Part shown: positions 2,061-19,022 of the stretch, one piece after another
Position numbering within the stretch: position 1 is the stretch's first letter
Layout of the letters: each line of letters starts with the position of its first letter
IMG/VR virus record: IMGVR_UViG_3300032295_003763
Location: 64,001-128,000 of that record
From: a virus
Taxonomy: Duplodnaviria > Caudoviricetes
Length of the DNA stretch: 64,000 nucleotides
Reading direction: 5' to 3' (one strand)
The notes under the pieces: generated by a model
Seen by the model: the letters and a program-made list of their open reading frames with translations, nothing else
Told to the model about the DNA's origin: nothing
Database searches by the model: none
Translations under genes and position numbers: made by a program

Positions 2061-2790
2061 AATCTTTCTTTAAATCAATAATATTTAAATCAAAATCTGT
2101 AGAATCTTTTTTATAACCAGACATAGACTCATCGTACATATCGCTTGTCCATTGATGGTTAAAAAACAATTCATCTGGAGTATTAAAACCATACATTTCA
2201 AGTATAGATTTTTGCTGTTCCAGTACTTCCTTGCCTCTCCAATTATGTCCGATGACTATAAGACCTGCTTCTTTACCTTTTACTGGATTAGATTCTTTTA
2301 AAGAGGACTGCATGTTTTCAATCCATGTTAATCTTTCTAATAACTTCTGATAAGTTGCATTCATCGATCCCCATCTAATTGAACCGAAAAATACAACAAC
2401 ATCTGCTTCATGAATAGCTTTAGAAATTCTCCACAATTCATCATCTGGGTTATTTAAGGATGCCCAACATCTCATAAAACCATCTGGGTTCTTCTCTTTA
2501 TCATCTAAAATTGCTTTTTGTTCACCACAATGATTACCATCTCTATGAGAAACATTCCCCTCACATGGATAAATTTTTAATTTAAATGCGTCAAATATTC
2601 TCGGCTTTGGGTCAATCATAGAAGCCATAACTTCAGCTAATTCTGATGATTTAGGAATTTCTTTATCCCATCTGTTAGATGTTGTTATAAATACACATTC
2701 CTTCCCTTGTAAATACTCAATTGTATTGAGCAAAGGTTTGAATTCACCAGAAGATGCTTCAAATAAACTAAATGGAGTTATATTCTTCAT
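2047..2790 (-). CDS. Flavodoxin-like NAD(P)H-dependent FMN reductase / iron-sulfur flavoprotein family protein
   Basis: Flavodoxin-fold motifs TTSNR...SSEL, DVVVFFGSIRWG, KLLERL, KGKEAGLIV; Cys cluster PCEGN...HCG...RCW. Confidence 0.75.
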   Translation of the reverse strand: MKNITPFSLFEASSGEFKPLLNTIEYLQGKECVFITTSNRWDKEIPKSSELAEVMASMIDPKPRIFDAFKLKIYPCEGNVSHRDGNHCGEQKAILDDKEKNPDGFMRCWASLNNPDDELWRISKAIHEADVVVFFGSIRWGSMNATYQKLLERLTWIENMQSSLKESNPVKGKEAGLIVIGHNWRGKEVLEQQKSILEMYGFNTPDELFFNHQWTSDMYDESMSGYKKDSTDFDLNIIDLKKDYEQE

Positions 2791-2842
2791 TTTAAACTTT
2801 TTATGATTTAAAGTATATATCTAATAAATAAAAGTTCATACT

Positions 2843-3049
2843 ATGAATTACGCTAGAAAAGTAAGAGAATTAGAAAAGATTTACTTTAATGAAAGTAAAG
2901 AGAATGAAAGTAATAAGTTCGAGTTAATAGAAACTCACAAAAAATATGAAGAACTTAAAACTCTATGTAAGGATCTTTTGAATAATTATGACAACAAAGA
3001 AAATATAGAAGATTCAGTAATTAAGATAAAATATCACCTTATGGGTTAA
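2843..3049 (+). CDS. Small hypothetical protein
   Basis: 68 aa ORF filling the gap between two minus-strand genes. Confidence 0.5.
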   Translation: MNYARKVRELEKIYFNESKENESNKFELIETHKKYEELKTLCKDLLNNYDNKENIEDSVIKIKYHLMG

Positions 3050-3495
3050 TCTTTCTTCAAACGATTATAAAGATCTTTTTTTATAGCGGATAAATGTTTG
3101 CAGAATTTAGGTATCCTCTGGGGATTCATTTTTTTTAATGGCTCTCCATTTGAAGATATGATTTCAGAAGCATCCTTTGTCCAAAGTAACCATTCATTTT
3201 CATATCTAAAATCATTACAATCACAATGAGCAATAACATGTTGATCTAAGTTATCTAAAGTTATAACTTTATCACTTAAAGGCTTCACCCATTGCTTATG
3301 CTTATTACCACTCGATACAGTGGTTGTCTGATATACATACTTGTTCTTTTTAGTTCTGGTCACAAATTTAACAATAATGTCTTTAGCCCTTTCTTTATAT
3401 CTCTTTGGAGTTCTTTTATAAATATAATTAAATCTTAATTCGTTAAGACTGGTATCTAATTTATTATGTAAAAAATCTATGAATGATGTCAGCAT
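3046..3495 (-). CDS. SWIM-type zinc finger protein
   Basis: HCDCNDF...FCKHL matches CxC-Xn-CxH. Confidence 0.7.
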   Translation of the reverse strand: MLTSFIDFLHNKLDTSLNELRFNYIYKRTPKRYKERAKDIIVKFVTRTKKNKYVYQTTTVSSGNKHKQWVKPLSDKVITLDNLDQHVIAHCDCNDFRYENEWLLWTKDASEIISSNGEPLKKMNPQRIPKFCKHLSAIKKDLYNRLKKD

Positions 3496-3506
3496 GATTT
3501 TAAGAA

Positions 3507-4187
3507 TTAATTATTTATTTCTGAAAGATGCTCTTGGAACAAATTATAAATAGTAGGTGTCCACAAATCCTTGGATAAATCTATTGGGCTTAAATTAGCA
3601 GCATTCTTTATAGTTGGGTCTGCTCCAAAATCTAATAACAATTGAACTGTATCATCCGATTCTCTTTCTAATGCATAATGTAAGGGTGTATTACCCTCAT
3701 CGTCTTGTGCATTTGGATTTATACCTTGGGCTAAAAATAATTCAGTAAGAGGCAGGTTAGCATATTCAGCCGCTAAGTGTAATGGAGTAGCAGCATTAAA
3801 TTTGCTTTTGATGCTCTTTACATTCGCACCATACTCAATAAGTGTTTTTGCAACATCTACCCCCTTATAGTTTTCTGCTACACTAAATATAGGGGTAAAA
3901 CCCGATTCATCTTCTATATTTGGATCCATACCATAATCTAAAAGCATCTTAACTAGATCCGCTTTAGTTTCATATCGGCATGCTATATGTAAAACAGTTT
4001 CACCAAAAGCATCATCAATATACTCCAAGTTTGCCCCAAGTTCTATAATATTTTTTACATAATCAATATTCGCATCTTTGGTTTCTCTTTTCTTAATCTC
4101 ATCAATAATTAATTTAGTCTTATTATTGGGAGACATAATCATATATTCATATGGATCAAATTCTTCAAAGAGTTTAATATACTTCAT
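3507..4187 (-). CDS. Ankyrin repeat protein with CTS-like leader
   Basis: GETVLHIAC, GFTPIFSVA, ATPLHLAAE, GNTPLHYAL repeats; N-terminus MKYIKLFEEF. Confidence 0.92.
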   Translation of the reverse strand: MKYIKLFEEFDPYEYMIMSPNNKTKLIIDEIKKRETKDANIDYVKNIIELGANLEYIDDAFGETVLHIACRYETKADLVKMLLDYGMDPNIEDESGFTPIFSVAENYKGVDVAKTLIEYGANVKSIKSKFNAATPLHLAAEYANLPLTELFLAQGINPNAQDDEGNTPLHYALERESDDTVQLLLDFGADPTIKNAANLSPIDLSKDLWTPTIYNLFQEHLSEINN

Positions 4188-4196: not shown

Positions 4197-5483
4197 TTAG
4201 ATTATAATAGGTTCTTTAGGCTCACCCTTTTCATCTGATTCAACATCGGGCCATACTTTACCTGACTTAGCAGTTGGCTTAGATTCTTCTTTCTTTTTTT
4301 CTTCCTCTTTTGCGGTAACATAAGGTAAATAAGAATCACTAAGATTTTCTAAAGCCCATCTGGTCTGCTTTCCTATTCTACCATCTACAGTCAATTTTCT
4401 TCCATCTTCGTTCATGGAATTTTCTTGAAAACGAATGACAGCAGAATGTGTAAGTTCACCAAATTTTCCAGTTATACCACCTTTAAATATACCCATTGCT
4501 TGAAGTATCTTTTGAACAACTTTTATTATTGCACCTTCTTGGATACCATTATATCCAATCCATGTTTTATTAGGGGAATATGATTCTAGCTCTTTAGCAA
4601 ACTTAGATGCTAATTTAGAACTGATCTTCTCCTCTTCTATCAAAATACAATTATCAATAAGTAATTCTAAACAATGAACTAAAACTGTTGCTCTCCATGA
4701 TATATCTGCACCTGGAAGCAAATCATAATACCGCATGTGATAATATGTGTCCTGTATAGATTCTGCTAATTTCTTAAAAGGCTTTTCTATAACACTCTCG
4801 AACTCAGTCAAGTAATCAATTTCTGTACTCTCTCCGAATATTGAATGGAATGTGCTTATGTCATATTTTTTAACAAAGTCAGATAATCCTAAAAATGTTT
4901 GAGAAGGCTGATAATTACCCATAAGATTAGTTAAAAATACACCAATCATATAAATAGGATTTCTATATTTTCTCGTTTTAATTAAAATTTCTTTCTGAAC
5001 AACATCGATTGGACTACTTGCATCAGTAAAGTCAGCATCAGATCTTTCGATTTTTACTTTCTTCAAATTTTTAATCTGGTCTGGGAGAATAGTGCTTAAA
5101 TAAGATTTATAATTATTTATATCTTGCTTAATGACCTTAGCTGCCTTTTTAACTTTATCTTTATTTTCCTTTAGATATAACAAGTCTTGATATACTTCTA
5201 CATCCGTCTGACTAGTAGATTTCTCAAGTAATGTCATCATACCGCTTGTACATGACTTATAACCAACATCAACCATATTCCATAGTGATGATGTTGGAAG
5301 GAGAGCTTCTTGGAATGTTTCATTACCATTAAATATTTCAATAGTTGATTGTGCTGAAAGAGCAGTAATTTGATAAAGGTCTGACATTCTGAACTCTTTC
5401 AATGTCAAACCATAATAACCATCATAAATGCCAGCTATTTCATTTAATTTAGCTTCTTTGAATTTACTATATCGTGTAATCAC
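4197..5483 (-). CDS. Protein with C-terminal peptidoglycan-binding domain (PG_binding_1-like)
   Basis: IKVVQKILQAMG...GKFGELTHSAVIRFQ...LTVDGRIGKQTRWAL; GTG start. Confidence 0.85.
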   Translation of the reverse strand: MITRYSKFKEAKLNEIAGIYDGYYGLTLKEFRMSDLYQITALSAQSTIEIFNGNETFQEALLPTSSLWNMVDVGYKSCTSGMMTLLEKSTSQTDVEVYQDLLYLKENKDKVKKAAKVIKQDINNYKSYLSTILPDQIKNLKKVKIERSDADFTDASSPIDVVQKEILIKTRKYRNPIYMIGVFLTNLMGNYQPSQTFLGLSDFVKKYDISTFHSIFGESTEIDYLTEFESVIEKPFKKLAESIQDTYYHMRYYDLLPGADISWRATVLVHCLELLIDNCILIEEEKISSKLASKFAKELESYSPNKTWIGYNGIQEGAIIKVVQKILQAMGIFKGGITGKFGELTHSAVIRFQENSMNEDGRKLTVDGRIGKQTRWALENLSDSYLPYVTAKEEEKKKEESKPTAKSGKVWPDVESDEKGEPKEPIII

Positions 5484-5513
5484 AGCTTTAAATTATATTT
5501 GCTTGTATATATC

Positions 5514-5550
5514 AAAAAAATAACCCTCTTTTGAAAATATCAGAAGAGGG
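5514..5550 (-). terminator. Rho-independent terminator
   Basis: CCCTCTT/AAGAGGG stem, with an A-run on the plus strand giving a U-tail on the minus strand. Confidence 0.65.
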
Positions 5551-5571
5551 CTGGAAAATTATAAAATTTAT

Positions 5572-6504
5572 TTAATAACCAAAGTTTTTCAGATTATCTG
5601 GATTGAAAGATGTGGTAGATGCATCAACACTAACTCTCCTAGTCTTAGTAATTGTGCCTTTAGGTTTAGAAACCACTGATACCTCAGTATCGGCTTTCTT
5701 ATCATCGGATTTTACATCTTCAATTATATTTTCTGATATTACTTCAGCCAATCCTTCTACATAGTATTTATATGCAAGTAAAGAAATATCTCTGATGATA
5801 TAATTCCCTATGTTATTTTTATCAAATGAAGAAATAGAACTTTTTGAAATTTTAAAACCAGGTGTATCGGAATAACCTGTCAATATTTCTGGCGATATTC
5901 CTAATTTAGGATCAAAATCCCTCGAAGTCAATGCGGATTTGAGGTCTTGAATGAATTTAGTTTTATTACTAATTTTTTCAAAAACATCTCTTTGTGAACT
6001 GTTTAATTTATCAAATATTCCTTTAGATTTTAATAAATCTACTAATTTATTTTCAGAAAGTAATTTAACAACATTTGAAGGATTTTTCAAATTTTCACTA
6101 GCAGATGCCATCACATAACTTTCACTACCTATATTTGGAATAGATATTGAATCTAATATATTTTTATCAGTTCTATATTCATTCTCCAATTCCTTTAAAA
6201 CACTAGCAGGGAAATCAGTATAATTTGGATTAGTATATTTTTCAATCTTTTTCCACATTGGATTAAATACATCTTTAGCCTTAAAATTCGTAGTTCCATT
6301 TTCTGGCGTAATAATCGTATTTAAGTCCGTATTAGCTGTACCTAAGATTCTTTTAACCAATTTATTATACATTTCAGAATGCACATATTCCATCAAGGTT
6401 TTATCTGTATAAACAGATTCATTTACATTATCAATATTATATTCTGAATTTGAATTATTTTCAGAAATAAATTGACTATAATTTAATATTTTTGACATAT
6501 TCAT
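5572..6504 (-). CDS. Hypothetical protein with CTS-like leader
   Basis: 310 aa; MSKILNYSQFISE...VNES. Confidence 0.8.
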   Translation of the reverse strand: MNMSKILNYSQFISENNSNSEYNIDNVNESVYTDKTLMEYVHSEMYNKLVKRILGTANTDLNTIITPENGTTNFKAKDVFNPMWKKIEKYTNPNYTDFPASVLKELENEYRTDKNILDSISIPNIGSESYVMASASENLKNPSNVVKLLSENKLVDLLKSKGIFDKLNSSQRDVFEKISNKTKFIQDLKSALTSRDFDPKLGISPEILTGYSDTPGFKISKSSISSFDKNNIGNYIIRDISLLAYKYYVEGLAEVISENIIEDVKSDDKKADTEVSVVSKPKGTITKTRRVSVDASTTSFNPDNLKNFGY

Positions 6505-6508
6505 CTAT

Positions 6509-8029
6509 TTATTTTACAGAAGACACATTATTAGGATTTGTATCCATAAAGCTTGTACTACCTACATTAGACAATGGACCCTGTGCATATTTTTGTTTTA
6601 GTGCTTGCACATAACCATTAATAAGAGCTTTAGTCTCTCTTCCAATTTTACCATCTTGTAATTTAGCACCAGCTTTCATTTGGAAATCCTTTACCCCACG
6701 CTCTGTTATAGTATCAAATACTTCAGAATTCAATTTACTCTTTTCAACATTACCAGAATAAATCAATAAGTTGTTAATCAATTTAACAACCTCTGGGTTC
6801 ATTTTTCTTGATCCAACTTTATAAACAAGTCTATCGGTTGTAAAAAATCCAAGATTTTCTAATTTTTCTACAATCTCTGCTTGTGCCATAGCTTTATTTC
6901 TAAGAATATTAAACTTCTTTTCACCCGCTTCCTTTTTAATTGTTTCTTCTTTCTTTACTACTAAACTTTCAACTTCTAAATTCAAGTTTATAAGTTTCAA
7001 AGAAACTAAAGAAACCACACACATATACATTACCTGCATAGATGGAGTAAAGATATTCTTTGTATCTTCATCTGGGCTTTGCAAAAACACTCTCTTTAAA
7101 AGAATTGAACTAACTTCATTTAACAATTCACCCATAGGTTCAAATACACCAGAATCTATTGAAGGTATAAATTGTTTCATAGCCATAATTGCATCAGGCC
7201 CAACTACTCCGCTAGTAAGATTTATTGAAGTATAATTCTTTCCAAATTTAGTTGAAAGCTGTTGACCATAAGGATACATGTTTATAACCATTTCATAAAA
7301 GCCTGCTAAACGGTCATATAAATCTACAGATTTAATAAGTTCATTAGGTTCTAACAAAGATCCAACTAAAAGTTTAGGATTAGATTGTATTGTATCTGAT
7401 TCAATCTCTTCTAGTTCCATACCGTCTACAACTGTATACAATCCTTTCAGACCAACAGTTGATGCTGACTGTTCTAAACTAGTCAAAGTTTGTTTAATTA
7501 TACTAGATATATCTAAATTATACAATGAAATAAAACTTTGCTTCAACGCTTCTGATTTAAAATCTATTGTAGTAGATTTCATAAAATTCTTTACAGCTTC
7601 ATCAATTTTAGGTATAACTGATGATATTCCACTAGGACTTGTAATTTCTGAAATCTTTTTCTGTCTTTCACCATAACTAGTTTTAGTAGCATCAATTACA
7701 GCCTGAAAACCAGCTGATAAGTCCTTTTCTATGAAGAGGATTCTAGTATCCATATAACTGATTTGAGATCTAATTAATTCAAATGCACTCGTATTAGATG
7801 CCTTATCTTTCCCCATAACTGGAGCCAATGATGGCATATTAGATTTAATAAATGTATGGATCGCATCAGATTTTTCTAAATCCAAACCTTCAAATAGTTT
7901 GTCGATCGTCAATTCAGACAATCTAAATTTAGCATCTTGATCAAATAGACCGAACCAGTCAGATGAAATAAAATTACTTTCATTCAATCTGAATTGATCA
8001 TGGTTATTATAAAAGTTTTTAAAAAGCAT
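6509..8029 (-). CDS. Protein with C-terminal peptidoglycan-binding domain; paralog of 8301-9719
   Basis: VKLINNLL...FDTITERGVKDFQ...DGKIGRETK; shares PS[ML]Q and LExLGFF motifs with 8301-9719. Confidence 0.8.
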   Translation of the reverse strand: MLFKNFYNNHDQFRLNESNFISSDWFGLFDQDAKFRLSELTIDKLFEGLDLEKSDAIHTFIKSNMPSLAPVMGKDKASNTSAFELIRSQISYMDTRILFIEKDLSAGFQAVIDATKTSYGERQKKISEITSPSGISSVIPKIDEAVKNFMKSTTIDFKSEALKQSFISLYNLDISSIIKQTLTSLEQSASTVGLKGLYTVVDGMELEEIESDTIQSNPKLLVGSLLEPNELIKSVDLYDRLAGFYEMVINMYPYGQQLSTKFGKNYTSINLTSGVVGPDAIMAMKQFIPSIDSGVFEPMGELLNEVSSILLKRVFLQSPDEDTKNIFTPSMQVMYMCVVSLVSLKLINLNLEVESLVVKKEETIKKEAGEKKFNILRNKAMAQAEIVEKLENLGFFTTDRLVYKVGSRKMNPEVVKLINNLLIYSGNVEKSKLNSEVFDTITERGVKDFQMKAGAKLQDGKIGRETKALINGYVQALKQKYAQGPLSNVGSTSFMDTNPNNVSSVK

Positions 8030-8065
8030 TGTTTTATAATTATTTTGTTCTTCTATATATCTGTA

Positions 8066-8125
8066 TAATAAAACTAGATATGCTCAATAAAGCAAAAAAC
8101 TTCATTGAGCATATTTTAGTTTATT
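8066..8125. terminator. Long imperfect hairpin (terminator or RNA-processing site)
   Basis: AAACTAGATATGCTCAAT ... ATTGAGCATATTTTAGTTT inverted repeat. Confidence 0.6.
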
Positions 8126-8126
8126 A

Positions 8127-8288
8127 TTATTCTTCTAACAACTTATAAACTTCTGTGAAATCAAAGTTATTACCATCTTTTAGAATAGTAAAACTCATTT
8201 CTTTTTTATCTTCTTCGAAAAGAATAGAGTTACTTTCGTTTATTGTGTCATTTGAAAGAAAATCATTGAATTTTAATATTTTCATCAT
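8127..8288 (-). CDS. 53 aa protein with CTS-like leader (absent from the ORF track)
   Basis: Manual translation MMKILKFNDFLSNDTINESNSILFEEDKKEMSFTILKDGNNFDFTEVYKLLEE*. Confidence 0.75.
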   Translation of the reverse strand: MMKILKFNDFLSNDTINESNSILFEEDKKEMSFTILKDGNNFDFTEVYKLLEE

Positions 8289-8300
8289 GTTTTATTATTT

Positions 8301-9719
8301 TTAAGCTTTATTATCACTTGTAGTATCTACACCCTTAACTGCCACTTTATCTTCTTCTGATTTACCTTCCATTCTAGTTTTTAAATCTTCTACAAAAGTA
8401 GATATTGATAATTTTGTATTTTTACCTATTCTTCCATCAGATTTTAAACCTTGTCCGTTAATCTTAATTTTCGATTGGAAAGTTTTTACAGCTTCACCTA
8501 ATATATCCGCATCGAAAGTACCTCTATTGATATAACTTGATGATTTAGGTAAAAGACCCATTTCGCTGAAAAGTTTTTTCAAAGAAACGATCATATCCTG
8601 CTCAATCTTAGAAAATTTCTTTTTTTCATAAAAAATCTTTTCACTTTCAAAGAATCCAAGCTTTTCGAGTTCACCATACGAATCTAAAATACCTTTAGCT
8701 TTAGCTTGTACTTTTTCGGATAAAATAGATTTTTTCTCTTCTTTCTTCTCTTCACCCTTAACTGATTCTACTTCTGTTGAAGCAATAGCCTTTAATACCA
8801 TAACTGTAGTTAAAGAAATGAATAGTGCTTGCAAAGAAGGAATAGTGATATTCTTCTTATATTCAGCACCCAATAAACCATATTGTTCTTCTACAATTTC
8901 TTTACAGATAGAATTCAAAAATTCTTTAAAATCATCTATCTTTGAAGGAATAATCTTATTCTTTAAATCAGCTGAAATAGAAATAGAACCTACAATTGAT
9001 TCTAAATAATCATAAGGATTATTATTATATGATATAAATTTCAATCCATCGATATTCATTGATTTTAATACCATTTCTAATAACATAGAAACTCTTACAA
9101 TAGGATTCTTACCCATAATATTCTTTTCTATAGTAGAATCAATATCAGTTTCTTTTAACCACAGGAAAGAATCTAAAGCAAATGAATCAGGTTCAATCTC
9201 TTTCAAACCCATATCATCTACCTTTTGATACACGGAATCCTTTAATCCAGTTTGATTTCCTTGAATATTTGCCGTTAAAGCTTTAAAAAAGATTTCTAAA
9301 ATTGTATCTTGACCCTTTAAAGATCTAACATTAGAAACAAGTTTTTTAATATCTTGTTTATTTTCTTTTAAAAATTCAGAAACTTTTTCTACAATATCCT
9401 TTTCAGCTTTCTTTACTGCTTCTTTAACATAATTCAATTGTTCTTCAACAATTCTGTCAGCAGTTGTATCTTCAGCTGTACTTTCATTAAAGAGATCTTT
9501 AGCTACTGGTAAATTTCCAGATAGCTTTGTATAAGTTTCAGAATCAGTGTCGATTTCCAAGCCTCTTAAAAGATGGTAAATACTAAGTTCTTTTAAGTAT
9601 GGTTTAGCACTTGTTCTAAAAAGTCCGCCTGAAAAACTTTCGTTAATGAAAACAGTTTTGGATTTCAAAGCTTGTTTCAATTCATCTACTCGTTTTTGGT
9701 AAAAATTTTCGTCAATCAT
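8301..9719 (-). CDS. Protein with C-terminal peptidoglycan-binding domain; paralog of 6509-8029
   Basis: GTFDADILGEAVKTFQ...LKSDGRIGKNTK. Confidence 0.8.
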   Translation of the reverse strand: MIDENFYQKRVDELKQALKSKTVFINESFSGGLFRTSAKPYLKELSIYHLLRGLEIDTDSETYTKLSGNLPVAKDLFNESTAEDTTADRIVEEQLNYVKEAVKKAEKDIVEKVSEFLKENKQDIKKLVSNVRSLKGQDTILEIFFKALTANIQGNQTGLKDSVYQKVDDMGLKEIEPDSFALDSFLWLKETDIDSTIEKNIMGKNPIVRVSMLLEMVLKSMNIDGLKFISYNNNPYDYLESIVGSISISADLKNKIIPSKIDDFKEFLNSICKEIVEEQYGLLGAEYKKNITIPSLQALFISLTTVMVLKAIASTEVESVKGEEKKEEKKSILSEKVQAKAKGILDSYGELEKLGFFESEKIFYEKKKFSKIEQDMIVSLKKLFSEMGLLPKSSSYINRGTFDADILGEAVKTFQSKIKINGQGLKSDGRIGKNTKLSISTFVEDLKTRMEGKSEEDKVAVKGVDTTSDNKA

Positions 9720-9734
9720 ATAATTTAGGTTTTT

Positions 9735-11828
9735 TTATCTATTTGCTAATGCCGCTTGCATTTGTTGTATATATCCCTGTGTCTGCTGTCTTTTTTGATA
9801 TTCTTCCTTAGAAATTGTACCCTCTAAGGAACTTTTAACTACTCCCGACAAATATTCTATCTGTTTAGCAATATAGTTAAGTGTTGGAAGATCAGCTTTA
9901 CCATTTATTTCTATTTCTGTACTTGTAGGTTTTGCATTCGTTTGGATAGAAGCTACAATTTTAGCCATCTCTTCATCATATTTACCATCAGCTTCGCCTG
10001 AATATATTCCAAGTTTTTTAAGACCCATTTGCAACATTTTAACATCCTCACCTTCATCACCGATCTGTATATACTTTCTTTCTTGACCTGTGCTATCCTT
10101 TCTGTTTGTAATACCAACAGGTTTATCGAGATTTTTACTATCTGCTGTTAAAGGTATTTTACCTTGATAGAACTCTTTTTCAAACACATGGAAAGCTGAT
10201 GAATAAGCAGATACTAGTCCCATTGTGACTAATCCTAGAGATGGGAGTTCATCATGATTCTCCCATTCCCGTTCTAAGCTATTCACAAAACTCATTGATG
10301 CGGTAGAATTTGCTTTAATATAATATGGAAAAGCTTCGCTATCTATTTGTTGTATACATTTTTGATAATCAGAATCTGACATGATTTTAGAATTATTCAA
10401 ACTAGTACACCATGCTTTAATTTTATCGGTAATATCTTGTGACTCTAATGATTTTTTAAAGCTTTCTCCAATTTCATCGAATGTAAAGAATGGTTCTAAT
10501 TTTTGATTTGCTAAATCCTTTTCAAAAACGGAAACTAATTCTCTCACTGGTTCTTTCGTAGTATCACTATCTGATTTTTCAAACCATTTTGCAATCCAAT
10601 ATATTCCATAAGCCATTCCTCCAAATTTTAATATACCCCAAGCAGCCGCTGGTATTTTAAAAATAAATCCACCTAAAGTAAATACATTAACTATAGCCTT
10701 AATGCTATCAGTTAAACCCTTTCTTAAATTTGTAAAGAATTTCCACAGACCTTTACCACCCCTGCCATCTGTTGTTTTGGTTTTTTTATTTTTTAAATTT
10801 TCACGGAATTTATCCCAAAATCCTTTCGCCTTTTCTCCCTCATTAGAATTAGCTGTAGGCATGCTTGGATCAGCTTTAGGTGTTGCATCTACATTTGGCG
10901 GTGAATCTACATCTGGAGTTTTTGTAGATGGCTTACCTTGTGTGTGAGTTGGATCAACATTACCAAGATTTATATTATCCGCATCTTGTTTAATTTTAGT
11001 TGTCGTATCCTTCAAAGCATCCTGTGCATCTTTAGGTGCTTTGCCTATATTCTCTGCAACATCATCAGCTGCGTTGGCGATTTTTTTTGCAGCATCATCA
11101 ACAGAACTAGATGGGGTATAATGCATACTATAAGTAAACGCTTTACCTGTTGATTGTGCAGCCCTCGCTGCATCATCAGAAGCTTTAGCAGCACCACCAA
11201 GTCCCTCACCACCTTTAAATAATTTACCTATTGCTTTTGTAAATGCTTCAAATCTCGATTCATTTACATATTCATACGATTCAGATGTATTTTGCCCTTT
11301 AGGTTCGATGACCGCTGTATTTAATGATTGAACTAATTGATTTACTGGTTCTTTAGATAGATACCAATTCACTAAAGAATTTCTAATTATAGTTCCTAAA
11401 GTAATTGGATTACTATTAAGAATTTTAGAAGTTTCTTCATCTATACCTTCTGAATTAAATTTTAAATCAGAATTAGCAGATGAATTTAAAATATTAGCAA
11501 TATTAGCAACATAATATTTAGCAGCAACTTCCAACATTAATGAATCTTTCTTAAGAGGTTCTGCAAAATCTAATTGTTCAGCTCTATCCTCATCCATTAT
11601 ACCCATAAGTTGAGCATAAATATTTGCTGGTATATTACCAATAGGAGTATTATAAAGTTTCTTAATATTCTCATCTATTTCTATACCCTCAGACCCAGGA
11701 ATACTTAAAAGAGGTTTTCCATATTCGGTAGCAAATTCAGAAGCAGGCTTAACTATCTTCTCATCGATCCATGATGGTAGACCTTCTTCATTTAACTTGT
11801 TTTCATATTCATTAAATCTCTTAATCAT
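9735..11828 (-). CDS. Large protein with internal hydrophobic helices and C-terminal peptidoglycan-binding domain
   Basis: IQIGDEGEDVKMLQMGLKKLG...ADGKYDEEM; hydrophobic AIVNVFTLGGFIFKIPAAAWGILKFGGMAYGIYWIAKWF. Confidence 0.85.
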   Translation of the reverse strand: MIKRFNEYENKLNEEGLPSWIDEKIVKPASEFATEYGKPLLSIPGSEGIEIDENIKKLYNTPIGNIPANIYAQLMGIMDEDRAEQLDFAEPLKKDSLMLEVAAKYYVANIANILNSSANSDLKFNSEGIDEETSKILNSNPITLGTIIRNSLVNWYLSKEPVNQLVQSLNTAVIEPKGQNTSESYEYVNESRFEAFTKAIGKLFKGGEGLGGAAKASDDAARAAQSTGKAFTYSMHYTPSSSVDDAAKKIANAADDVAENIGKAPKDAQDALKDTTTKIKQDADNINLGNVDPTHTQGKPSTKTPDVDSPPNVDATPKADPSMPTANSNEGEKAKGFWDKFRENLKNKKTKTTDGRGGKGLWKFFTNLRKGLTDSIKAIVNVFTLGGFIFKIPAAAWGILKFGGMAYGIYWIAKWFEKSDSDTTKEPVRELVSVFEKDLANQKLEPFFTFDEIGESFKKSLESQDITDKIKAWCTSLNNSKIMSDSDYQKCIQQIDSEAFPYYIKANSTASMSFVNSLEREWENHDELPSLGLVTMGLVSAYSSAFHVFEKEFYQGKIPLTADSKNLDKPVGITNRKDSTGQERKYIQIGDEGEDVKMLQMGLKKLGIYSGEADGKYDEEMAKIVASIQTNAKPTSTEIEINGKADLPTLNYIAKQIEYLSGVVKSSLEGTISKEEYQKRQQTQGYIQQMQAALANR

Positions 11829-11837
11829 TAGATTTTC

Positions 11838-13055
11838 TTAATTTTGAGTCGCTACATCTTCTTCAGAGAAATCACTAATCAAATCATATATGACTTCCCC
11901 CAATATCCAAAATGCATAAATATTTAAAAGAAACATCACAATAGGTCCTGAACCTGGGATTATAATGTTAGATATAGATGCTATAATTGTATCTATAAGA
12001 ATATACTTTCCAAAATCTGATAAAGCATTTATTAAAATAGCAAATGTAGGCCCTAACATTTCAAATTTAAAAGGTCCATTTATCCCAAAATGTTCAGTTA
12101 AGAATTTTGAAGAATATTCAAGTGCTTCATTTCCATTTGCTTTAATATATTCTGAAAATTCCTTTATCCAACTAAATGGTGGCAAATTGTCTAATTTTTG
12201 TATACACCATTTATAAAAATCATCAATCATCTGTATAGATTCATCTAATCTTCTCATATCTTTAAAATTAGGAATCTTAATACTAATTAGATTTAATTTA
12301 GAATGATTATTTACATCTATTGCATTTTCTTTTATTGCATCTGGTATAAATGTTAATAAGTGTTCTTTAATGTTATTTTGAATTGAATTAACATTATCTG
12401 ATTCATTAACAACTTTATTAATAGACATAGTAACCTTTGAAGCAAAAACATCACCCTCGATAATTTTCCCGATGGATTCGACAAACATATTGCTCAATTG
12501 ACCTGTTTCTTTTGTTAATGATTCCCAAATAAATGCATTTTTATCAAACACATCTTCATTTAAAGATTCTTTAATTGAGTTAATCTGTTGATTTATGGAT
12601 ATAGTCATTTGTCTCTTTAGTGATCTATTCCCCGCAAACCATTTATTAGTTTCTATTTTTACACTGTCCCATGCAGTTTGTATACCTTCCATGATTTTAT
12701 CAACCACAGAGCTTATAGCTGACATTAAATTAGTCCCTAATTCAACTACCCAGTTAATAGCACCCTTCACAGCTTTCTTTGAAGGTTCTATAATATTTTT
12801 TTGAATAAAGTTTATAGCATCAGAATACAAATCTTCTTTCAATAATCCCCATTGATCGATTGATAATTGTCTTTCTGATATAAATTCCAAAACAAGCTTT
12901 TGCTCTCTTTCTAAATAAATATCTTCATTTCCCAATATACTTTCAGCTATCGGGATATATGAATTATTTTTAAAACCAAAATTATGCAATCTTTGGGATT
13001 GAAGATATTGGTCAAAATTTAATATAGTTTCTCTTTTAGGTATTTGCATAGACAT
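11838..13055 (-). CDS. Hypothetical protein with C-terminal hydrophobic helical hairpins
   Basis: MLGPTFAILINAL...IIASISNIIIPGSGPIVMFLLNIYAFWILG; many [LIV]xE[SD] motifs; ATG at 13055 preferred over TTG at 13058. Confidence 0.8.
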   Translation of the reverse strand: MSMQIPKRETILNFDQYLQSQRLHNFGFKNNSYIPIAESILGNEDIYLEREQKLVLEFISERQLSIDQWGLLKEDLYSDAINFIQKNIIEPSKKAVKGAINWVVELGTNLMSAISSVVDKIMEGIQTAWDSVKIETNKWFAGNRSLKRQMTISINQQINSIKESLNEDVFDKNAFIWESLTKETGQLSNMFVESIGKIIEGDVFASKVTMSINKVVNESDNVNSIQNNIKEHLLTFIPDAIKENAIDVNNHSKLNLISIKIPNFKDMRRLDESIQMIDDFYKWCIQKLDNLPPFSWIKEFSEYIKANGNEALEYSSKFLTEHFGINGPFKFEMLGPTFAILINALSDFGKYILIDTIIASISNIIIPGSGPIVMFLLNIYAFWILGEVIYDLISDFSEEDVATQN

Positions 13056-13119
13056 CAATAATTTATAGTTCTATATATCTTTTTTCAAACATGTGCTTTC
13101 AAGTTATTACCAACGATAT

Positions 13120-14097
13120 TTATCCCTGCCAACGAGATCTACTACTACCAACAGTATCTCTTACATCAACATGAACGAAGTTTGGATAAATCCCTAAACC
13201 ACCTTGATGGAACGAATCAACATAATTATAAAGTTCACTAGGTGTAACACCTGATATCGTTATATCTGCTGCGTTACCAAACATATGTTGAGATCTTGTA
13301 GCTACGCCTTTACTTTTACTTCTACTACGCAATCCAGCATTATATGATGGGGTTCTATATCCTGAATTTATGTTAATATCTTTTCCAAAATGTTCTCTTA
13401 TCTTCTCAAGTAATTCTATCAAATAAGGATTTATTAAAATTACATCAGATCCGTCTTTACAAGCAAATTCAGATACTTTGAAATTAGGAGAAAGGTTTTT
13501 ATCACCATCTTTACTGTTGCTATATTGTATAGATTTAGAAATGTATTGTTCAAATTCACTCGAAGGGTAATCAACACCTCTATTTACACCCTCACCCTTT
13601 GTAACCGAAGAAGCTGGTATTTGTATCTTCAAGTCTGGTGTTGGGGTGACAACAGCAGGTATTTTAGGTTCTTTAAGAACACCTTTTGTATCTTCTTCAC
13701 CTTCTTTAGATTCAAATTCCAATAAAAATTTTATGAATGACAATGGAATTTGATTTTCAATCTGTATAGGTAAATTAAAATCTTTAGATATAGTTTTAGC
13801 TGCATCTAAAGTTACTTGATCTAAAAGTCCATCTGCACTATGATTCTTGAGGTATCCTAATCCAATCAAAATAGATTGTAGAACTGAAATGTCTTGACTT
13901 CTATCATTTACATTTAAGACCTTTAAACCATCTATAAGCTCTTGTGAGAAATATTCTCTAGTTATCTCTTTAATTAGGTCACTCTTCTCTTTTTTATCAG
14001 ATTTACTTGTAATTAAACCAATAGCTTCTTGTGCATTTTGAATTTGTACTTCGTTTAAAACAAATTCACCAAAGCTGTATATTTTCTTTCTATTCAT
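13120..14097 (-). CDS. PG-binding module plus M15A (YcbK/DUF882-like) Zn peptidase
   Basis: LSPNFKVSEFACKDG, INSGYR, SQHMFGNAADI, GGLGIY..FVHVDVR. Confidence 0.9.
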   Translation of the reverse strand: MNRKKIYSFGEFVLNEVQIQNAQEAIGLITSKSDKKEKSDLIKEITREYFSQELIDGLKVLNVNDRSQDISVLQSILIGLGYLKNHSADGLLDQVTLDAAKTISKDFNLPIQIENQIPLSFIKFLLEFESKEGEEDTKGVLKEPKIPAVVTPTPDLKIQIPASSVTKGEGVNRGVDYPSSEFEQYISKSIQYSNSKDGDKNLSPNFKVSEFACKDGSDVILINPYLIELLEKIREHFGKDININSGYRTPSYNAGLRSRSKSKGVATRSQHMFGNAADITISGVTPSELYNYVDSFHQGGLGIYPNFVHVDVRDTVGSSRSRWQG

Positions 14098-14102
14098 AAG
14101 TA

Positions 14103-15059
14103 TTAAGCTATCATATTTTGAGAATCTACTCTCGACAATTCAAAGTGCATACCGTCCTTTCTTCTATTAAAATGACCACCCCAAAAGAACCCAAGTTTTA
14201 GTGCCGCTGGGACTAATTCCCTAACACTACCCTTTTCACCAACAGCTGGGGGCATCTTACCTAAAGGATTACTACGTGTGTTAATGTCAAATGCTATACC
14301 GAAAGCATGAGGACTTAAAGTACTTTGAGTTCCCCTAATTACTCTAGGGACAAAGCATCCTGCCCAGTTTTCTATTTTGCTCAAAAGTCCAAGATTTTCC
14401 CATTCTTGCCAAAGTGCAAGTATTGGTTTTGCAGCAAGTCTATGGCAACGAATTTTAGTGAGTTTAGGAGGATTTTGTATTTTAGACAATTGCGGTAAAT
14501 CTATTGTAATAATATTTTCTTTTACAAAATTATTTTGAACAGTAATATAATCACCTGATGCCTTTACCCATACAATTTTTCCGAATAAATTTTCCTTTTC
14601 AACTAAATTTAATGAATGTATATCAGTTGGTTTTGGTGGCCAGTTGTATTTACCATCTTTATACTTAGGATCATCGTATGAATCCTTTTTTTTATCAGTA
14701 GAAAATTCAAGCTCACTTGATTGATATGTTGTAAATAAATCTATAACTTCTTTAGATATAGGTTTATTCACATCTACTGATACATTAGACTTAGAAGCAA
14801 ATTTTTTAATAGCTTCCATAGTCGTTTGATCCAGTTGCCCACTCATTTGTGATGCTGACAAATACCCTAACCCTAATAATAAAACTTGAATTATTTTTAC
14901 ATCCTGTGTAGTTTCATTAAAATTAATATCAGAACTACCCTTTTGTAAGTTTGAAGATATAAATCCCTTACTAACCTGTTGAACAATTTCAGATTTTTCC
15001 TTTGAGCTTTTGGAATTCTTTAAAGAATCTATAATATCCCTAGGTGTCTCTAATTTCAT
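14103..15059 (-). CDS. PG-binding module plus M15 (Peptidase_M15_4, L-Ala-D-Glu type) peptidase
   Basis: GCFVPR, LSPHAFGIAFDIN, WGGHF..DGMHFE. Confidence 0.88.
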   Translation of the reverse strand: MKLETPRDIIDSLKNSKSSKEKSEIVQQVSKGFISSNLQKGSSDINFNETTQDVKIIQVLLLGLGYLSASQMSGQLDQTTMEAIKKFASKSNVSVDVNKPISKEVIDLFTTYQSSELEFSTDKKKDSYDDPKYKDGKYNWPPKPTDIHSLNLVEKENLFGKIVWVKASGDYITVQNNFVKENIITIDLPQLSKIQNPPKLTKIRCHRLAAKPILALWQEWENLGLLSKIENWAGCFVPRVIRGTQSTLSPHAFGIAFDINTRSNPLGKMPPAVGEKGSVRELVPAALKLGFFWGGHFNRRKDGMHFELSRVDSQNMIA

Positions 15060-16849
15060 TTTTTAGATCCTATTATTTTATTATAAACGAAAGGAAATAT
15101 CGTTGGATCTTCATTTATTAAGTAGTCTGAAAATATTTCAGATGCTTTATCTAAATCACTAGAAATATAATAAGAACCTGGTTTATCTTTAAATTCAACA
15201 AACACTGTTTCTAATAATTTTACCTTTTTATCATCAGGAAATTTAGCAAAATTATAAACGATCGTTTTTATTGTGGTAATAACATCATCCTCATTAGTCG
15301 AAGATGTTAATATTTCGGAAATTTGAGGTATATTTTTACCTGATATTTTATTCTTTAACTTGTCTAAAACTGTTTTTGAGAAATTAGCAGTTTGTATAGT
15401 ATTTTGAATCTGTGTAGGCTCAGATTTTTCTTCAGTAGTTTTATTAGTTTCTTCTTGATTTTTAATATCTGATTCAATGTTTGTTATATCATCACTAGAT
15501 ACATCACTCGAATCTTTAAAAAACTTTATCAATTCTTGTATAATCGTTTCATCAGTCCATATAAGATTAGATAATTTAGTCGCTAATGTTTCTAAACTCA
15601 AATCTGATTTTATTACTTTTTGATCATCTTTACTTTGAAACATCGTATCCGAAATATTGGATGATTTCAAATAGTCAATCTTATTTACAAGTATGTCTTT
15701 TATGAAGTTATTAAGTACCTTTTTCCCACTTTCTTCATCCATGGATTCAAAGATATTTAAAACCATTTTTTGCTTTATATTAGAAGAATCTTTTTTGGCT
15801 CTTTTTATAACTCCATTTAAAAATGCTTCTGTTGTAAAGTTACCTATATTTTCCACAAGATCACTACTTAAAGTCTCTTCGGTTTTCTTGATTTCTTCTG
15901 GTGTTTCTTTTGGAATATCCTTTACTTCTGGAGTTATTGGCTCAGTTGCTGATACCTTTTGATCTTCTTCCTTTTTAACTTCTTCTTCAGCCTCAACTGA
16001 AGCATTAGCAATATCTTCGATTTGATCTTCACTCTTACTCTTCAATTCTGCGTTCCAAGAATCCCATTGTGCTTTTCTGTCAACTGAAGGTTTTCCAAAA
16101 ATAGCAACAGGACCTTCGATTGATTCTAATTTAAAATTGATTATTTCAGCATTTTCAAATTTATTATTCTTGAATAATTTAAGTAGTGACTCATAAGGAA
16201 TTTGAACAGCATTCGCTAAAGTAGTCAAGAATATAAAACCAGGTGTACTATTTTGTTGGTCATAATCATATCCTGGATACTTCACTAGAAAATGTGTAAC
16301 CTGAAAAATAGCATTGTCATAATTTATCTCTTCAGAATCTACATCTCCGCCTTTAATCCAAGACATAAAATCTGAAAAAAATGATTCAGAAACATAACTA
16401 TCATATACTCTCCTATTACCATATCTATCATAATAGTATTTAGATGAAGATCTTCTTCTTTTAGGATACTTTTCATATCCAACTAAATAATCATGTAAAC
16501 TATCGATATTAGGACTATATGACTTTGTGAATTTTGGATCCTTAGATTTAGTTGTAGGCATTAATACTACAAGATCACCTTTCCATGTATTCGAATTAAC
16601 GCGAAACGTCTTCATTGTTTCATAGTTGATAGAATTAATAAAATTCTTTAGATACTTTTCAGTAACTACAATAGACTCTGCCATTTTTTTAAGAGGGCAT
16701 AAACCAGGTAGCATGTGTTTAGAATCGAATCCAAATTGAGGATTCATATCAAGAAAGTTTTGAATTCTAGATACTACGTTATCTATTTCTTTTTTCTTTC
16801 TGTTTTTTAAAAAATCAAAAAATGATTCGCTAACATTCGAATATCTCAT
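15056..16849 (-). CDS. Hypothetical protein with internally duplicated domains
   Basis: Two copies of VSESFF, each followed by an alignable ~95 aa domain; ATGA overlap with the downstream gene. Confidence 0.8.
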   Translation of the reverse strand: MRYSNVSESFFDFLKNRKKKEIDNVVSRIQNFLDMNPQFGFDSKHMLPGLCPLKKMAESIVVTEKYLKNFINSINYETMKTFRVNSNTWKGDLVVLMPTTKSKDPKFTKSYSPNIDSLHDYLVGYEKYPKRRRSSSKYYYDRYGNRRVYDSYVSESFFSDFMSWIKGGDVDSEEINYDNAIFQVTHFLVKYPGYDYDQQNSTPGFIFLTTLANAVQIPYESLLKLFKNNKFENAEIINFKLESIEGPVAIFGKPSVDRKAQWDSWNAELKSKSEDQIEDIANASVEAEEEVKKEEDQKVSATEPITPEVKDIPKETPEEIKKTEETLSSDLVENIGNFTTEAFLNGVIKRAKKDSSNIKQKMVLNIFESMDEESGKKVLNNFIKDILVNKIDYLKSSNISDTMFQSKDDQKVIKSDLSLETLATKLSNLIWTDETIIQELIKFFKDSSDVSSDDITNIESDIKNQEETNKTTEEKSEPTQIQNTIQTANFSKTVLDKLKNKISGKNIPQISEILTSSTNEDDVITTIKTIVYNFAKFPDDKKVKLLETVFVEFKDKPGSYYISSDLDKASEIFSDYLINEDPTIFPFVYNKIIGSKK

Positions 16850-16858
16850 AGTTTTAAA

Positions 16859-17323
16859 TTATATTTCTTCGTGGCTCAATACTGCAAATTTTGATTCACC
16901 AACTTCTTCAATTGGCATATTCTCTTCAGAACTAATGAATCTGATAGTTGCATCTTGTAATAAATATTTCCCAGCAGGAAATGAATTGTTGAGATTGTTT
17001 TTTGTTGTATATTTAATCAAAAGCTCAATCTCTTTAGCATTAGATTTACCAGCCAAATTAGCAATCACAAGATTAATTTGAGCATATTCAATCGAAGGTC
17101 CGAATATACCTAAACCTGCTCCAGTAACTGGATTTGAAATGAAAGTCTGACTATCACCATAATCTCTATGTAAAGAAAGAATCTCAATCTTTACTTTATA
17201 TGGTTTTAATACAACACTATTAATGTGTTTTTTGATAGATTCTAAATCTTCCTTTAAAGGTTCACCCGCTACTGATTTAGCCTCATTGACCTTTTGTTCC
17301 TTGTATTCCTTAAAAATTCTCAT
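16859..17323 (-). CDS. Hypothetical protein with CTS-like leader
   Basis: MRIFKEYKEQKVNEA; GATATATA at 17351-17358. Confidence 0.8.
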   Translation of the reverse strand: MRIFKEYKEQKVNEAKSVAGEPLKEDLESIKKHINSVVLKPYKVKIEILSLHRDYGDSQTFISNPVTGAGLGIFGPSIEYAQINLVIANLAGKSNAKEIELLIKYTTKNNLNNSFPAGKYLLQDATIRFISSEENMPIEEVGESKFAVLSHEEI

Positions 17324-17363
17324 AGAAGTTTTACAATTTTTTTATAGTTCTATATATCAAACT

Positions 17364-17393: not shown

Positions 17394-19022
17394 TTATACT
17401 GCAGGTTCTTCTGTTGCCGCACCCGTATCTACAGGTTCATCTCCTGGTTGATCTCCTGCCTTCTTTTCCTTTTCCTTAATCATCGATCTGTTTTCTTGCA
17501 ATTCTTCACGAGTTAAGTTCAAGAATGCTTCCATTGCAAAATCCAAATCGAAATAAGAATCGTCTTTTGTTCTAGGAATATTGAGCAATTCATTGATTGC
17601 AGATATACGCTTTTGCATAACTTCAACCTTTCTTTGAACTTCAAAACTATTATCACGATTAAACTTTATACCTATACTTGATCTAAACAGGTGATCCCCT
17701 TCAAATTCAGGATATTTCATAATTAATTGTAAAACCAAAGGCTTTAACATAACTTCTTGGAATCCAGAACGAAGTCTATTGATAAAGTTACCAAATCTTA
17801 CCTCATCTCTTTGAATACCATCTGCACCCAAACTCATTGATGCTCCACCATCTGCAAATCGACTTAATGGTATTTTAGATGCTCTTCTAAGTTTTAATTC
17901 AAAATATTTTAAGAAATCAGGGTTTGATAAATCAACACCTTGACCACCAATAACCTCAACATTTGGAGAGTTTCCATCTTTCGAAGGGAACATAAAGTGC
18001 TTGAAGAATGGGATAGAAGGTCTACCATTGATTGATAAAGTACCATCCGCATCGTTGAAAAATATTTCTTCTTTATAATTATTTAGAATTTCAGATAGCT
18101 CTTGCTTTGCCTTTTGTGGAGAATTACTACCGATAGGGATGGTCATCTTCAAACGAAACTGAGCATACATGATATGCCACATAACCTTTGAGTTCTCAAT
18201 CAATCTCAAAAGATTTAAAGGACGTACAAGACGCTCAACGTAACTTACACGATCCATTTGTAAGTTTTGAGCATAAGCTATATAAATAACTGAAGAATCA
18301 TAAATAATCCTTGAGGATTCATTTCCAATCTTTTGAATCCAAACTATGTATTCTTCCCCATCTTCACCAACAATAGTTGATAATTCTAAAGTAGCTGGAT
18401 CTAATTTATTCAAAGCGATAACATCTTCGCCATCTTCATCCGTTACAATTTCGAATGCTAAGAATCCATCTATCAAATATTGTCTAAATAAATTCCAAGC
18501 TTTAGTATTATTGTTAAATCCGAATTTCACATAAAGCTTACGGAATTCTTCATGTATAACATCAAGAATTTCTTCTTTTTTATCTTCACTAAGAAATGAT
18601 TCTAAGCCCTTTGTATCTGGATAGCAGAACCAGTTTTTATCATCATATACAATTGCTTCATCAGCAATCGTATCCAATATCTCTACAACTTCATCATTTA
18701 GTGAAAATGAACGCAAGAAATCTCTCTTACCTACATAATTTGAATCATAAATCGCAAGTGCCTTTAAACCTCCGATATCTTGCATAGCCATAGCAGCAAG
18801 TAATCTCTGATCCCATTGAGAAGAACCATAACCACCATAAACTGAATGTCCAAGTGCACCTGAGCCACCTGCGTTGGTTTCAGTTTCACCAGCACCTTGC
18901 CTTCTTTGAATGATCAAATCATCATAATACATACCGAAAGAAGATAACTTTCTTACATTGTCAGCTGGACCTGATGTAAAGTTATATGTTCTCATTCCAT
19001 CTTTAGAAACAAAACCTGCCAT
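17394..19022 (-). CDS. gp20: Portal vertex protein (T4 gp20-like)
   Basis: ILDTIADEAIV, FRQYLIDG, SYVERLVRPLNLLRLIE, LKYFELKLRRASKIPLSRF, IQRDEVRFGNFINRLR. Confidence 0.93.
   Translation of the reverse strand: MAGFVSKDGMRTYNFTSGPADNVRKLSSFGMYYDDLIIQRRQGAGETETNAGGSGALGHSVYGGYGSSQWDQRLLAAMAMQDIGGLKALAIYDSNYVGKRDFLRSFSLNDEVVEILDTIADEAIVYDDKNWFCYPDTKGLESFLSEDKKEEILDVIHEEFRKLYVKFGFNNNTKAWNLFRQYLIDGFLAFEIVTDEDGEDVIALNKLDPATLELSTIVGEDGEEYIVWIQKIGNESSRIIYDSSVIYIAYAQNLQMDRVSYVERLVRPLNLLRLIENSKVMWHIMYAQFRLKMTIPIGSNSPQKAKQELSEILNNYKEEIFFNDADGTLSINGRPSIPFFKHFMFPSKDGNSPNVEVIGGQGVDLSNPDFLKYFELKLRRASKIPLSRFADGGASMSLGADGIQRDEVRFGNFINRLRSGFQEVMLKPLVLQLIMKYPEFEGDHLFRSSIGIKFNRDNSFEVQRKVEVMQKRISAINELLNIPRTKDDSYFDLDFAMEAFLNLTREELQENRSMIKEKEKKAGDQPGDEPVDTGAATEEPAV

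Follow-up and report, generated by a model that had tools for sequence, protein, structure and literature searches.

The block of genes described here occupies positions 4197-17323 of a 64,000-nucleotide stretch of viral DNA, referred to below as the window, which corresponds to bases 64001-128000 of a 199,927-bp viral contig (IMG/VR record IMGVR_UViG_3300032295_003763; 31% G+C), and it lies directly downstream of the gene for a T4-type portal. Comparison with related sequences leads us to read the block, with a probability of about 0.5, as a late-expressed set of genes for cargo inside the head, belonging to a clade of huge phages with contractile tails and T4-type portals; the proteins probably travel in the capsid and are set free in the host when it is infected. 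The distinctive feature is a conserved portal-adjacent array composed of wall-binding modules, two peptidases and a hairpin protein, in a phage with a contractile tail. Packaging, cleavage, ejection and the site of action are what we infer from the evidence set out below.

A leader shared by portal-adjacent genes

The interval is filled by ten minus-strand open reading frames (ORFs) of 154-697 amino acids (aa) and a conserved ORF of 53 aa, with gaps of at most 100 nt; genes are named here by their lower coordinate in the window. The preliminary description, made from the sequence alone, had listed eleven consecutive minus-strand genes directly downstream of the portal, and both the ORFs and the portal itself (17394..19022, minus strand; T4 gp20 type; phrog_213 at E 8e-67, with phrog_429 and phrog_218, and PF07230 on orthologues) agree with it. 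The right-hand limit that it had set stands, at the portal. The left-hand limit does not, given that tagged genes run on through 1..4187.

Most of the products share an N-terminal leader in which two aromatic residues three positions apart are followed by [LIV]-x-E, mostly L/V/I-N-E. Such a leader had been claimed for nearly all proteins of the block and is found on nine of the eleven; it is absent from 14103, and 15056 carries only the short form MRYSNVSE. Of the 206 proteins of the genome, 25 have an N-terminal [LIVF]NE, compared with 6-9 in internal windows of equal size. A stricter leader pattern is present at 14 of 206 N-termini and in 1.6% of internal windows, which is an enrichment of about four-fold (p = 9e-6), and it is concentrated in this block (p = 6e-4). 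In six relatives the register of the leader and the Glu of the cut site are kept while the bodies of the proteins drop to 23-60% identity, and an alignment of 32 sequences of the 11838 family displays the same leader conservation. In a model of 6509 that is otherwise confident, residues 1-30 are disordered. The same tag occurs elsewhere in the genome on a RimK-like enzyme and on other proteins.

The genome also encodes a protease that could trim such leaders. A gp21-type S77 protease is fused to a scaffold domain in a protein of 672 aa (L009:4459-6477, genome 166459-168477, minus strand; PF03420, 46 bits; phrog_207), the protease domain taking up about 230 residues at its start. The scaffold domain contains seven [LIVF]NE sites, the run VNESVNESVNESINE and about twenty Y[LI][AS]E repeats, and its density of [LIV]xE is 55 per 1000 residues as against 19 genome-wide. 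The T4-type capsid protein starts with MQVLNE and has TLNE/S at residue 43 (a slash marks the putative cut site); its maturation site could not be fixed by alignment with T4 gp23, since the N-terminal parts align poorly. Portal, capsid protein and protease of this phage are plain T4 type.

In T4, gp21 cuts after L/I-x-E, and the first ten residues of the internal protein IPIII are enough for packaging, positions 4 and 7 serving in targeting while positions 8 and 10 govern cutting (PMC9026906); this capsid-targeting sequence is MKTYQEFIAE (10.1101/2021.01.19.427310). T4 gp24 starts with MAKINE and T4 Alt with MELITE; Alt has 682 aa, so size alone is no bar to capsid-targeted status. The next gene after the portal, in about 56 distant relatives whose portals are about 40% identical, specifies a ~113-aa protein that starts with MKxIKTFEQF[VI]SE/AE, which is nearly the T4 tag, and it is followed by the protease-scaffold gene and then by a capsid gene whose product starts with MANLINE/AE. 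From the near-T4 tag after the portal in these distant relatives it follows, on sequence evidence, that the tag is ancestral to this whole branch. The block itself takes the position of T4 core genes 67 and 68. Head loading by way of a T4-like capsid-targeting leader cut after Glu, which the preliminary description had proposed, is well supported by comparison: by the S77 protease, by the motif on capsid and scaffold proteins, by retention of the leader in the divergent orthologues, and by the near-copy of the T4 tag beside distant portals. Loading into the head followed by trimming is the best reading of the leader, and appears fairly probable from these comparisons.

Members of the block

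All members are encoded on the minus strand. Closest to the portal, gene 16859 (16859..17323) encodes a 154-aa protein with the leader MRIFKEYKEQKVNE/AK and no family match. It is the sole slow-evolving member (74-95% identity) and, because it stands at the position of T4 core gp67/gp68, it is probably a component of the prohead core; no homology to the ~113-aa post-portal proteins of the distant relatives was found by phmmer. Next to it, gene 15056 (15056..16849) encodes a 597-aa protein of no known family with a short conserved propeptide, MRYSN[VI]xE/SFFDF. The N-terminal module of this protein is duplicated internally (self-alignment score 68 versus 31.7 +/- 5.5 in shuffles); copy 2 lies at YVSE/SFFSDF, near residue 165, and includes the putative cut site VSE/SFF, and the protein may be cut into two similar pieces.

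Two zinc peptidases come after it. The first, 14103 (14103..15059), combines M15_4 with an N-terminal PG_binding_1-like domain and has no leader in any orthologue; the other, 13120 (13120..14097), is of the M15_2/M15_3 type, also with a PG_binding_1-like domain, and its leader ends in IYSFGEFVLNE/V. Gene 11838 (11838..13058) encodes an all-helical protein of 406 aa with the leader ILNFDQY...YIPIAE/S and a C-terminal hydrophobic hairpin. The 697-aa product of 9735 (9735..11828; leader MIKRFNEYENKLNE/E) has a long middle part of low complexity and, at the C-terminus, a PG_binding_1 domain. The product of 8301 (8301..9719; 472 aa) is a paralogue of 6509 with a leader ending in FINE/SFSGG and a C-terminal PG_binding_1 domain that is degenerate. 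Then come the 53-aa ORF (8127..8288; leader MKILKFNDFLSNDTINE/S), which is found at the same place in relatives, and 6509 itself (6509..8029; 506 aa; leader MLFKNFYNNHDQFRLNE/S), with a helical domain of about 350 aa and a C-terminal PG_binding_1 domain. Gene 5572 (5572..6504; 310 aa) has a leader of the form ILNYSQFISE/N...VNE/S and belongs to a divergent family always situated after a 6509-type gene. The last member, 4197 (4197..5483; 428 aa; leader MITRYSKFKEAKLNE/I), ends in PG_binding_1. Comparison of 15056, 9735 and 11838 with PDB sequences gave nothing under E 0.5.

Predicted wall-binding domains, peptidases and membrane segments

The preliminary description had assigned PG_binding_1 domains to six proteins of the block, M15 peptidase domains to two and internal hydrophobic helices to 9735 and 11838; the first two assignments are borne out, and the third holds for one protein only. 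PG_binding_1 lies over the Pfam cut-off in 4197 (37 bits), 6509 (27 bits) and 9735 (30 bits). It is under the cut-off in 14103 (20 bits) and 13120 (15 bits), yet 12 of 14 orthologues of both match. Protein 8301 is itself without a Pfam match, is a full-length paralogue of 6509, and has seven orthologues of which three match PG_binding_1. An AlphaFold2 (AF2) model of 6509, built from 38 homologues, has a mean confidence score (pLDDT) of 83, and its residues 385-480 superpose on solved peptidoglycan-binding domains, namely those of CtpB (Z 10.5), SleB (Z 9.9; root-mean-square deviation 1.8 A) and phiKZ gp144 (Z 8.1). With three proteins over the cut-off and three recognized through orthologues, paralogy or a confident model, six block proteins carry PG_binding_1, murein binding itself being a prediction.

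Both peptidases match M15 Pfam profiles over the cut-off, at 58-66 bits (M15_2 and M15_3 in 13120, M15_4 in 14103). The zinc ligands, S-x-H-x6-D and a distal third His, are intact in 14 of 14 orthologues, and the two enzymes look active, as far as sequence can tell. Among annotated proteins, endolysins and peptidases of Faecalibacterium phages, Microviridae and Vibrio phages come nearest to the catalytic domain of 13120, whose leader and N-terminal domain were not found in those endolysin-type M15 enzymes of unrelated phages.

Of the two proteins thought to contain internal hydrophobic helices, 11838 shows a hydrophobic hairpin towards its C-terminus (about 60 residues, approximately 335-395) that is conserved. 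Its AF2 model (32 homologues) is all-helical with a pLDDT of 57, too poor for fold comparison, and the 61 members of its family all fall within this phage clade. In 9735 a stretch rich in Gly and aromatic residues (approximately residues 370-410) is borderline hydrophobic (Kyte-Doolittle 1.62) and falls to 0.9-1.2 in two orthologues, so that 9735 was dropped as a membrane protein. A search of the ESM Atlas with 9735 returned peptidoglycan-binding clusters only, with template-modelling scores below 0.3. The block products are without signal peptides, and no export signals follow the predicted cut sites.

Conservation and modular architecture

The whole array is present in the same order after the portal on ten IMG/VR contigs, on a 320-kb ENA contig and on a 113-kb JGI contig. 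In the same genome pairs identity is 84-96% for the portal, 74-95% for the 154-aa protein and 23-85% for the other members. In LR756500 and in the relatives with ~40% identical portals, the protease-scaffold and capsid genes come directly after the portal or after one small tagged gene; in this clade they are about 85 kb away from the portal. Given this adjacency of portal and protease-scaffold genes in the relatives, and the fast divergence of the block, the array is regarded as a clade-specific, fast-evolving filling of the head module. Searches of GenBank phages, by megablast with the block and by tblastn with 11838 and 9735, gave no match.

Proteins 6509 and 8301 form one family with a third copy encoded at genome 22450-23883. 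The plan of the 6509 family consists of leader, helical body of about 350 aa, long helix and PG_binding_1, and its distant members keep the leader and the PG_binding_1 motif DG.[IV]G..T. A profile of the helical body retrieved 26 cluster representatives among 1.84 billion proteins, all from its own family. Neither Foldseek (PDB and BFVD) nor VIA-align (48,161 chains) gave anything above background for residues 31-380, the helical domain; the matches of both programs to the 6509 model concern only its C-terminal peptidoglycan-binding domain. One family member, P0120 (603 aa), ends in ankyrin repeats, and therefore the 6509-type helical body can be seen as carrying binding modules that are open to exchange. 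A 5572-type gene comes after every 6509-type gene, as with 5572 here, with 23887-24972 elsewhere in the genome and with two pairs in L093, the 5572-type genes being linked to each other at E 5e-16 to 4e-51. The pairs (window 5572-8029; L004:4450-6972; L093:14859-17681; L093:17810-20351) have therefore been duplicated as a unit, both in this genome and among relatives, and their recurrence suggests that 6509-type and 5572-type products work together.

Probable late promoters

The sequence GATATATA, preceded by a T-rich stretch, occurs in 64 copies, about 55 of which lie 9-80 nt (usually 20-35) upstream of a start on the same strand. One box (17351..17358, minus strand) is 28 nt upstream of gene 16859, and copies at 13072, 9768, 8054 and 5506 precede genes 11838, 8301, 6509 and 4197. 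Boxes had been noted earlier before several block genes; GATATATA indeed precedes five of them and behaves like a promoter genome-wide, being found also upstream of the tail sheath gene, the fibre genes and many other tagged genes. Because a gp55-like late sigma factor of 114 aa is encoded in the window (49524-49868, minus strand; phrog_234, E 5e-15), GATATATA is likely a late promoter akin to T4 TATAAATA. Gene starts are without a Shine-Dalgarno sequence and have A-rich leaders only.

The phage and its relatives

The contig is estimated to be 52% complete, that is about half, and absences from it weigh little. Since a contig of 348 kb encodes a protein identical to 6509 and one of 320 kb a close relative of 11838, the phage is considered truly huge. 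By portal similarity the nearest GenBank records are LR756500-LR756504, phages of 462-735 kb (32-39% identity), followed by Lak phages (33%) and then by Tenacibaculum phage PTm1 and Sphingomonas phage PAU. Upstream of the portal, a gp2-like gene (19041-19712) and a gp4-like gene (19649-20140) mark a head module together with it. The contig codes for a tail sheath (phrog_34521, E 1e-98) and a tail tube, both recognized in PHROGs; profile searches of the contig with PF06714 (Gp5_OB) and PF04984 (sheath) found no match, the sheath having matched in PHROGs. Our guess is that the host belongs to Bacteroidota, from the style of the signal peptides, the lack of Shine-Dalgarno sites and the nearest relatives.

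Comparison with known systems

The closest parallel is with the T4 internal proteins IPI, IPII, IPIII and Alt. The likeness includes a short tag at the N-terminus, with two key positions (aromatic or hydrophobic) spaced by three and an L/I-x-E end, a gp21-type S77 protease in the genome, late expression, and unrelated, fast-evolving cargo behind a conserved tag. On the other hand, the tag is here 14-38 residues long with mostly an L/V/I-N-E end, the cargo is acidic and of 35-78 kDa as opposed to the basic 8-20-kDa proteins of T4, and at least nine tagged genes stand in one portal-side block. Domains for wall binding and wall cutting and a membrane hairpin, which characterize the present array, are not known from T4-type heads.

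The gp14-gp15-gp16 proteins of T7 (and the corresponding ones of SP6, or phiKMV gp36) are comparable in idea only, as head-internal muralytic and membrane-active proteins that leave before the DNA. Likeness to gp14-16 was not detected in Pfam, PHROGs, PDB sequence or fold searches, an absence that is weak given that there is a single confident model. In place of the short non-contractile tail of T7 there are a sheath and a tube, and no tail extension would therefore be needed; the enzymes are M15 peptidases instead of transglycosylases or lysozymes, and they are accompanied by several non-catalytic wall-binders.

Huge myoviruses such as phiKZ, 201phi2-1 and SPN3US resemble this phage in having heads with many protease-processed internal proteins in paralogous families. 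A relative of gp21 cleaves inner-body proteins of the phiKZ type after Glu, and many of these proteins are ejected (PMC9026906; PMC10052503). There is, however, no detectable homology, and wall-directed domains are not described among those proteins. The baseplate lysins T4 gp5 and phiKZ gp181 are likewise virion-carried wall hydrolases of contractile-tailed phages, and PG_binding_1 is used by phiKZ gp181 and also by gp144, the same protein that superposes on the 6509 model. They differ in their position at the tail tip and in having no head-protease propeptide, whereas the genes described here belong to the head module and carry a head tag. A published survey lists head-internal lysins only for podoviruses of Gram-negative hosts and places the lysins of myoviruses on the baseplate (PMC5380687). 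The array goes unmentioned in two papers on huge phages (10.64898/2026.10.24.761521 and PMC12619734).

Proposed role and alternative explanations

In the proposed mechanism, the N-terminal propeptide of the capsid-targeting type carried by most products would dock them to the scaffolding core during prohead formation, and the gp21-type S77 protease would then cut after Glu. The mature proteins would remain in the head and exit via the tail with or ahead of the DNA. The cargo would be modular, a lineage-specific helical body being joined to a target-binding end that is usually PG_binding_1. The wall subset, comprising the peptidoglycan-binders, the two M15 peptidases and the hairpin protein, would locally bind and cut the host wall and make contact with the inner membrane at entry; as an alternative, the block proteins could be released into the periplasm at entry. 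Because of the ankyrin swap in the 6509 family and of tagged neighbours of cytoplasmic type, action at the envelope is not taken to be a property of the whole leader set. The broader picture suggested by these data is a large battery of capsid-delivered proteins, of which this block would be the wall-directed part.

Several observations weigh against this interpretation. The M15_4 peptidase 14103 has no leader, and among annotated homologues those nearest to the M15 catalytic domain are endolysins. Tagged neighbours bear domains typical of the cytoplasm (ankyrin, FMN_red-like), and P0120 ends in ankyrin repeats where PG_binding_1 would be expected. The proteins are acidic (isoelectric point, pI, 4.8-6.0; 35-78 kDa; M15_4 has a pI of 9.2), unlike the small basic internal proteins of T4. 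Conserved xNE/[LIV]xE sites are numerous inside 11838, which would be expected of a core protein that is degraded. No cultured relative found in the GenBank phage searches has these genes. Finally, a contractile tail already spans the envelope, and the reason for wall-binding cargo is not evident.

The preliminary description had gone further and proposed ejection into the envelope to build a T7-like channel. No result supports this: there is no likeness to gp14-16, a single hairpin is convincing, M15_4 is leaderless, the proteins are acidic and large, the tagged neighbours include ankyrin, SWIM-like and flavodoxin-like proteins, and ankyrin has replaced the wall-binding end in one family member. 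The ankyrin swap, the cytoplasm-type neighbours and the missing gp14-16 likeness therefore favour a general battery of cargo or effectors over a dedicated channel. A myovirus ejectosome made from non-T7 parts, launched before the DNA so as to open the envelope, hold on to it and line it while a long genome passes through, is put forward by analogy only and with considerable doubt. It is also unlikely that the proteins belong to the prohead core or inner body, as structural filler or helpers of the scaffold in building and organizing a very large capsid, with PG_binding_1 reused as a protein-binding module and no role at the envelope. That explanation draws on the place of the block at the T4 67/68 position after the portal, on tandem paralogues and all-helical bodies, on scaffold-like [LIV]xE densities (44 per 1000 aa in 11838, 38 in 8301), on the processed inner-body families of phiKZ (PMC9026906), and on the PG_binding_1 fold being that of the pro-domain of matrix metalloproteinases (MMPs), where it does not bind murein; proMMP-2 is among the matches. 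Yet two catalytically intact M15 peptidases would be out of place in a scaffold, the DG.[IV]G..T motif is kept even in distant family members, and the very fast divergence beside a 96%-identical portal is unlike that of size-determining core proteins, only the 154-aa protein being slow.

A late module for lysis or wall remodelling, with the M15 enzymes as endolysins, the peptidoglycan-binders as helpers acting from within and the shared N-terminus kept for some other purpose, is quite improbable. It could appeal to the endolysins and peptidases nearest the catalytic domain of 13120, to the leaderless M15_4 and to the late-type promoter on the block. The block nevertheless holds no holin, spanin or other small membrane ORF, in gaps of at most 100 nt; its products lack signal peptides; four proteins of 428-697 aa have no catalytic domain; and the leader ends in the motif of the head protease itself. 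At least three lysin candidates lie elsewhere (a GH24 lysozyme, a protein with PG_binding_1 and a CHAP-like domain, and a signal-anchored SLT protein). In every relative examined the block is linked to the portal and never to a lysis cassette; linkage to holin or spanin cassettes had been named as a check on the earlier proposal, and none was seen. The earlier view that lysis does not explain the block thus holds, given also the lysins elsewhere. The M15 family includes the cytoplasmic VanX and the precursor-trimming VanY, and this fits another alternative, in which the proteins would be injected with the DNA as T4 Alt is, and the M15 peptidases and peptidoglycan-binders would attack or sequester wall precursors (UDP-MurNAc-pentapeptide, lipid II) in the cytoplasm, stopping growth or division of the host. 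The leader on ankyrin, FMN_red-like and RimK-like proteins and the lack of export signals past the predicted cut sites are in keeping with it, but PG_binding_1 is typical of extracytoplasmic proteins and the catalytic domains are nearest to endolysins, and we consider it highly improbable. Least credible by far is a leader that has no targeting role and arises as a by-product of AT-rich coding or of a preference at translation starts. At 31% G+C such a bias can be imagined, the codons for Lys, Ile, Phe, Asn, Tyr and Glu being AT-rich; the pattern is, however, four times as frequent at N-termini as in internal windows from the same proteins (p = 9e-6), is conserved in register among orthologues, ends in the motif of the capsid and scaffold proteins and matches the experimentally defined tag of T4.

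Neighbouring genes and further observations

The tagged genes beyond the left edge of the block are on the minus strand and encode an ankyrin protein (3507-4187; MKYIKLFE/EF), a protein with a CxC..CxH, SWIM-like motif recognized by eye (3046-3495; leader ending SLNE/L), an FMN_red-like, flavodoxin-like protein (2047-2790; leader ending SLFE/A) and a DUF6576 protein (ending at 1452; MKKMKYLLGLNE/Y). The shorter leader form MKYIKLFE/EF recurs on several ankyrin paralogues of the genome. Directly upstream of the protease-scaffold gene is a gene for a Phage_lysozyme protein of family GH24 (294 aa; L009:6648-7532, genome 168648-169532, minus strand). It is a candidate for the true endolysin or for a further lysin of the head module, and its N-terminus, MKSLILE/N, fits [LIV]xE.

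The second 6509/5572-type pair adjoins a second envelope-directed cluster (L004:3320-3811, 7709-8710 and 8722-9990), whose products bear signal peptides or anchors and comprise an SLT transglycosylase, a protein with PG_binding_1 and a Ctp-like protease of family S41 that has a PDZ domain. A DnaJ-like protein is encoded at L008:14038-15042 (genome 158038-159042, minus strand), its J-domain N-terminus being judged by eye; together with the likely Bacteroidota host it recalls the 'moraphage' lineage of PMC12619734.

Biological significance

The helical carrier domain of the 6509 family is rare in databases and has no known fold match. Since the survey cited above limits head-internal lysins to podoviruses, wall enzymes borne in the head would be new for a T4-type phage. 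If the cargo is truly in the head, T4-type phages would deliver wall-directed enzymes and binders through the tail, which would bear on how genomes of at least 300 kb are moved across the Gram-negative envelope. The capsid-targeting tag, whose known use is limited to a few small anti-restriction proteins, would then be seen to serve a large, modular battery, and virion cargo of uncultured T4-like phages could be predicted from the tag and its cut site by a rule that is simple and can be tested.

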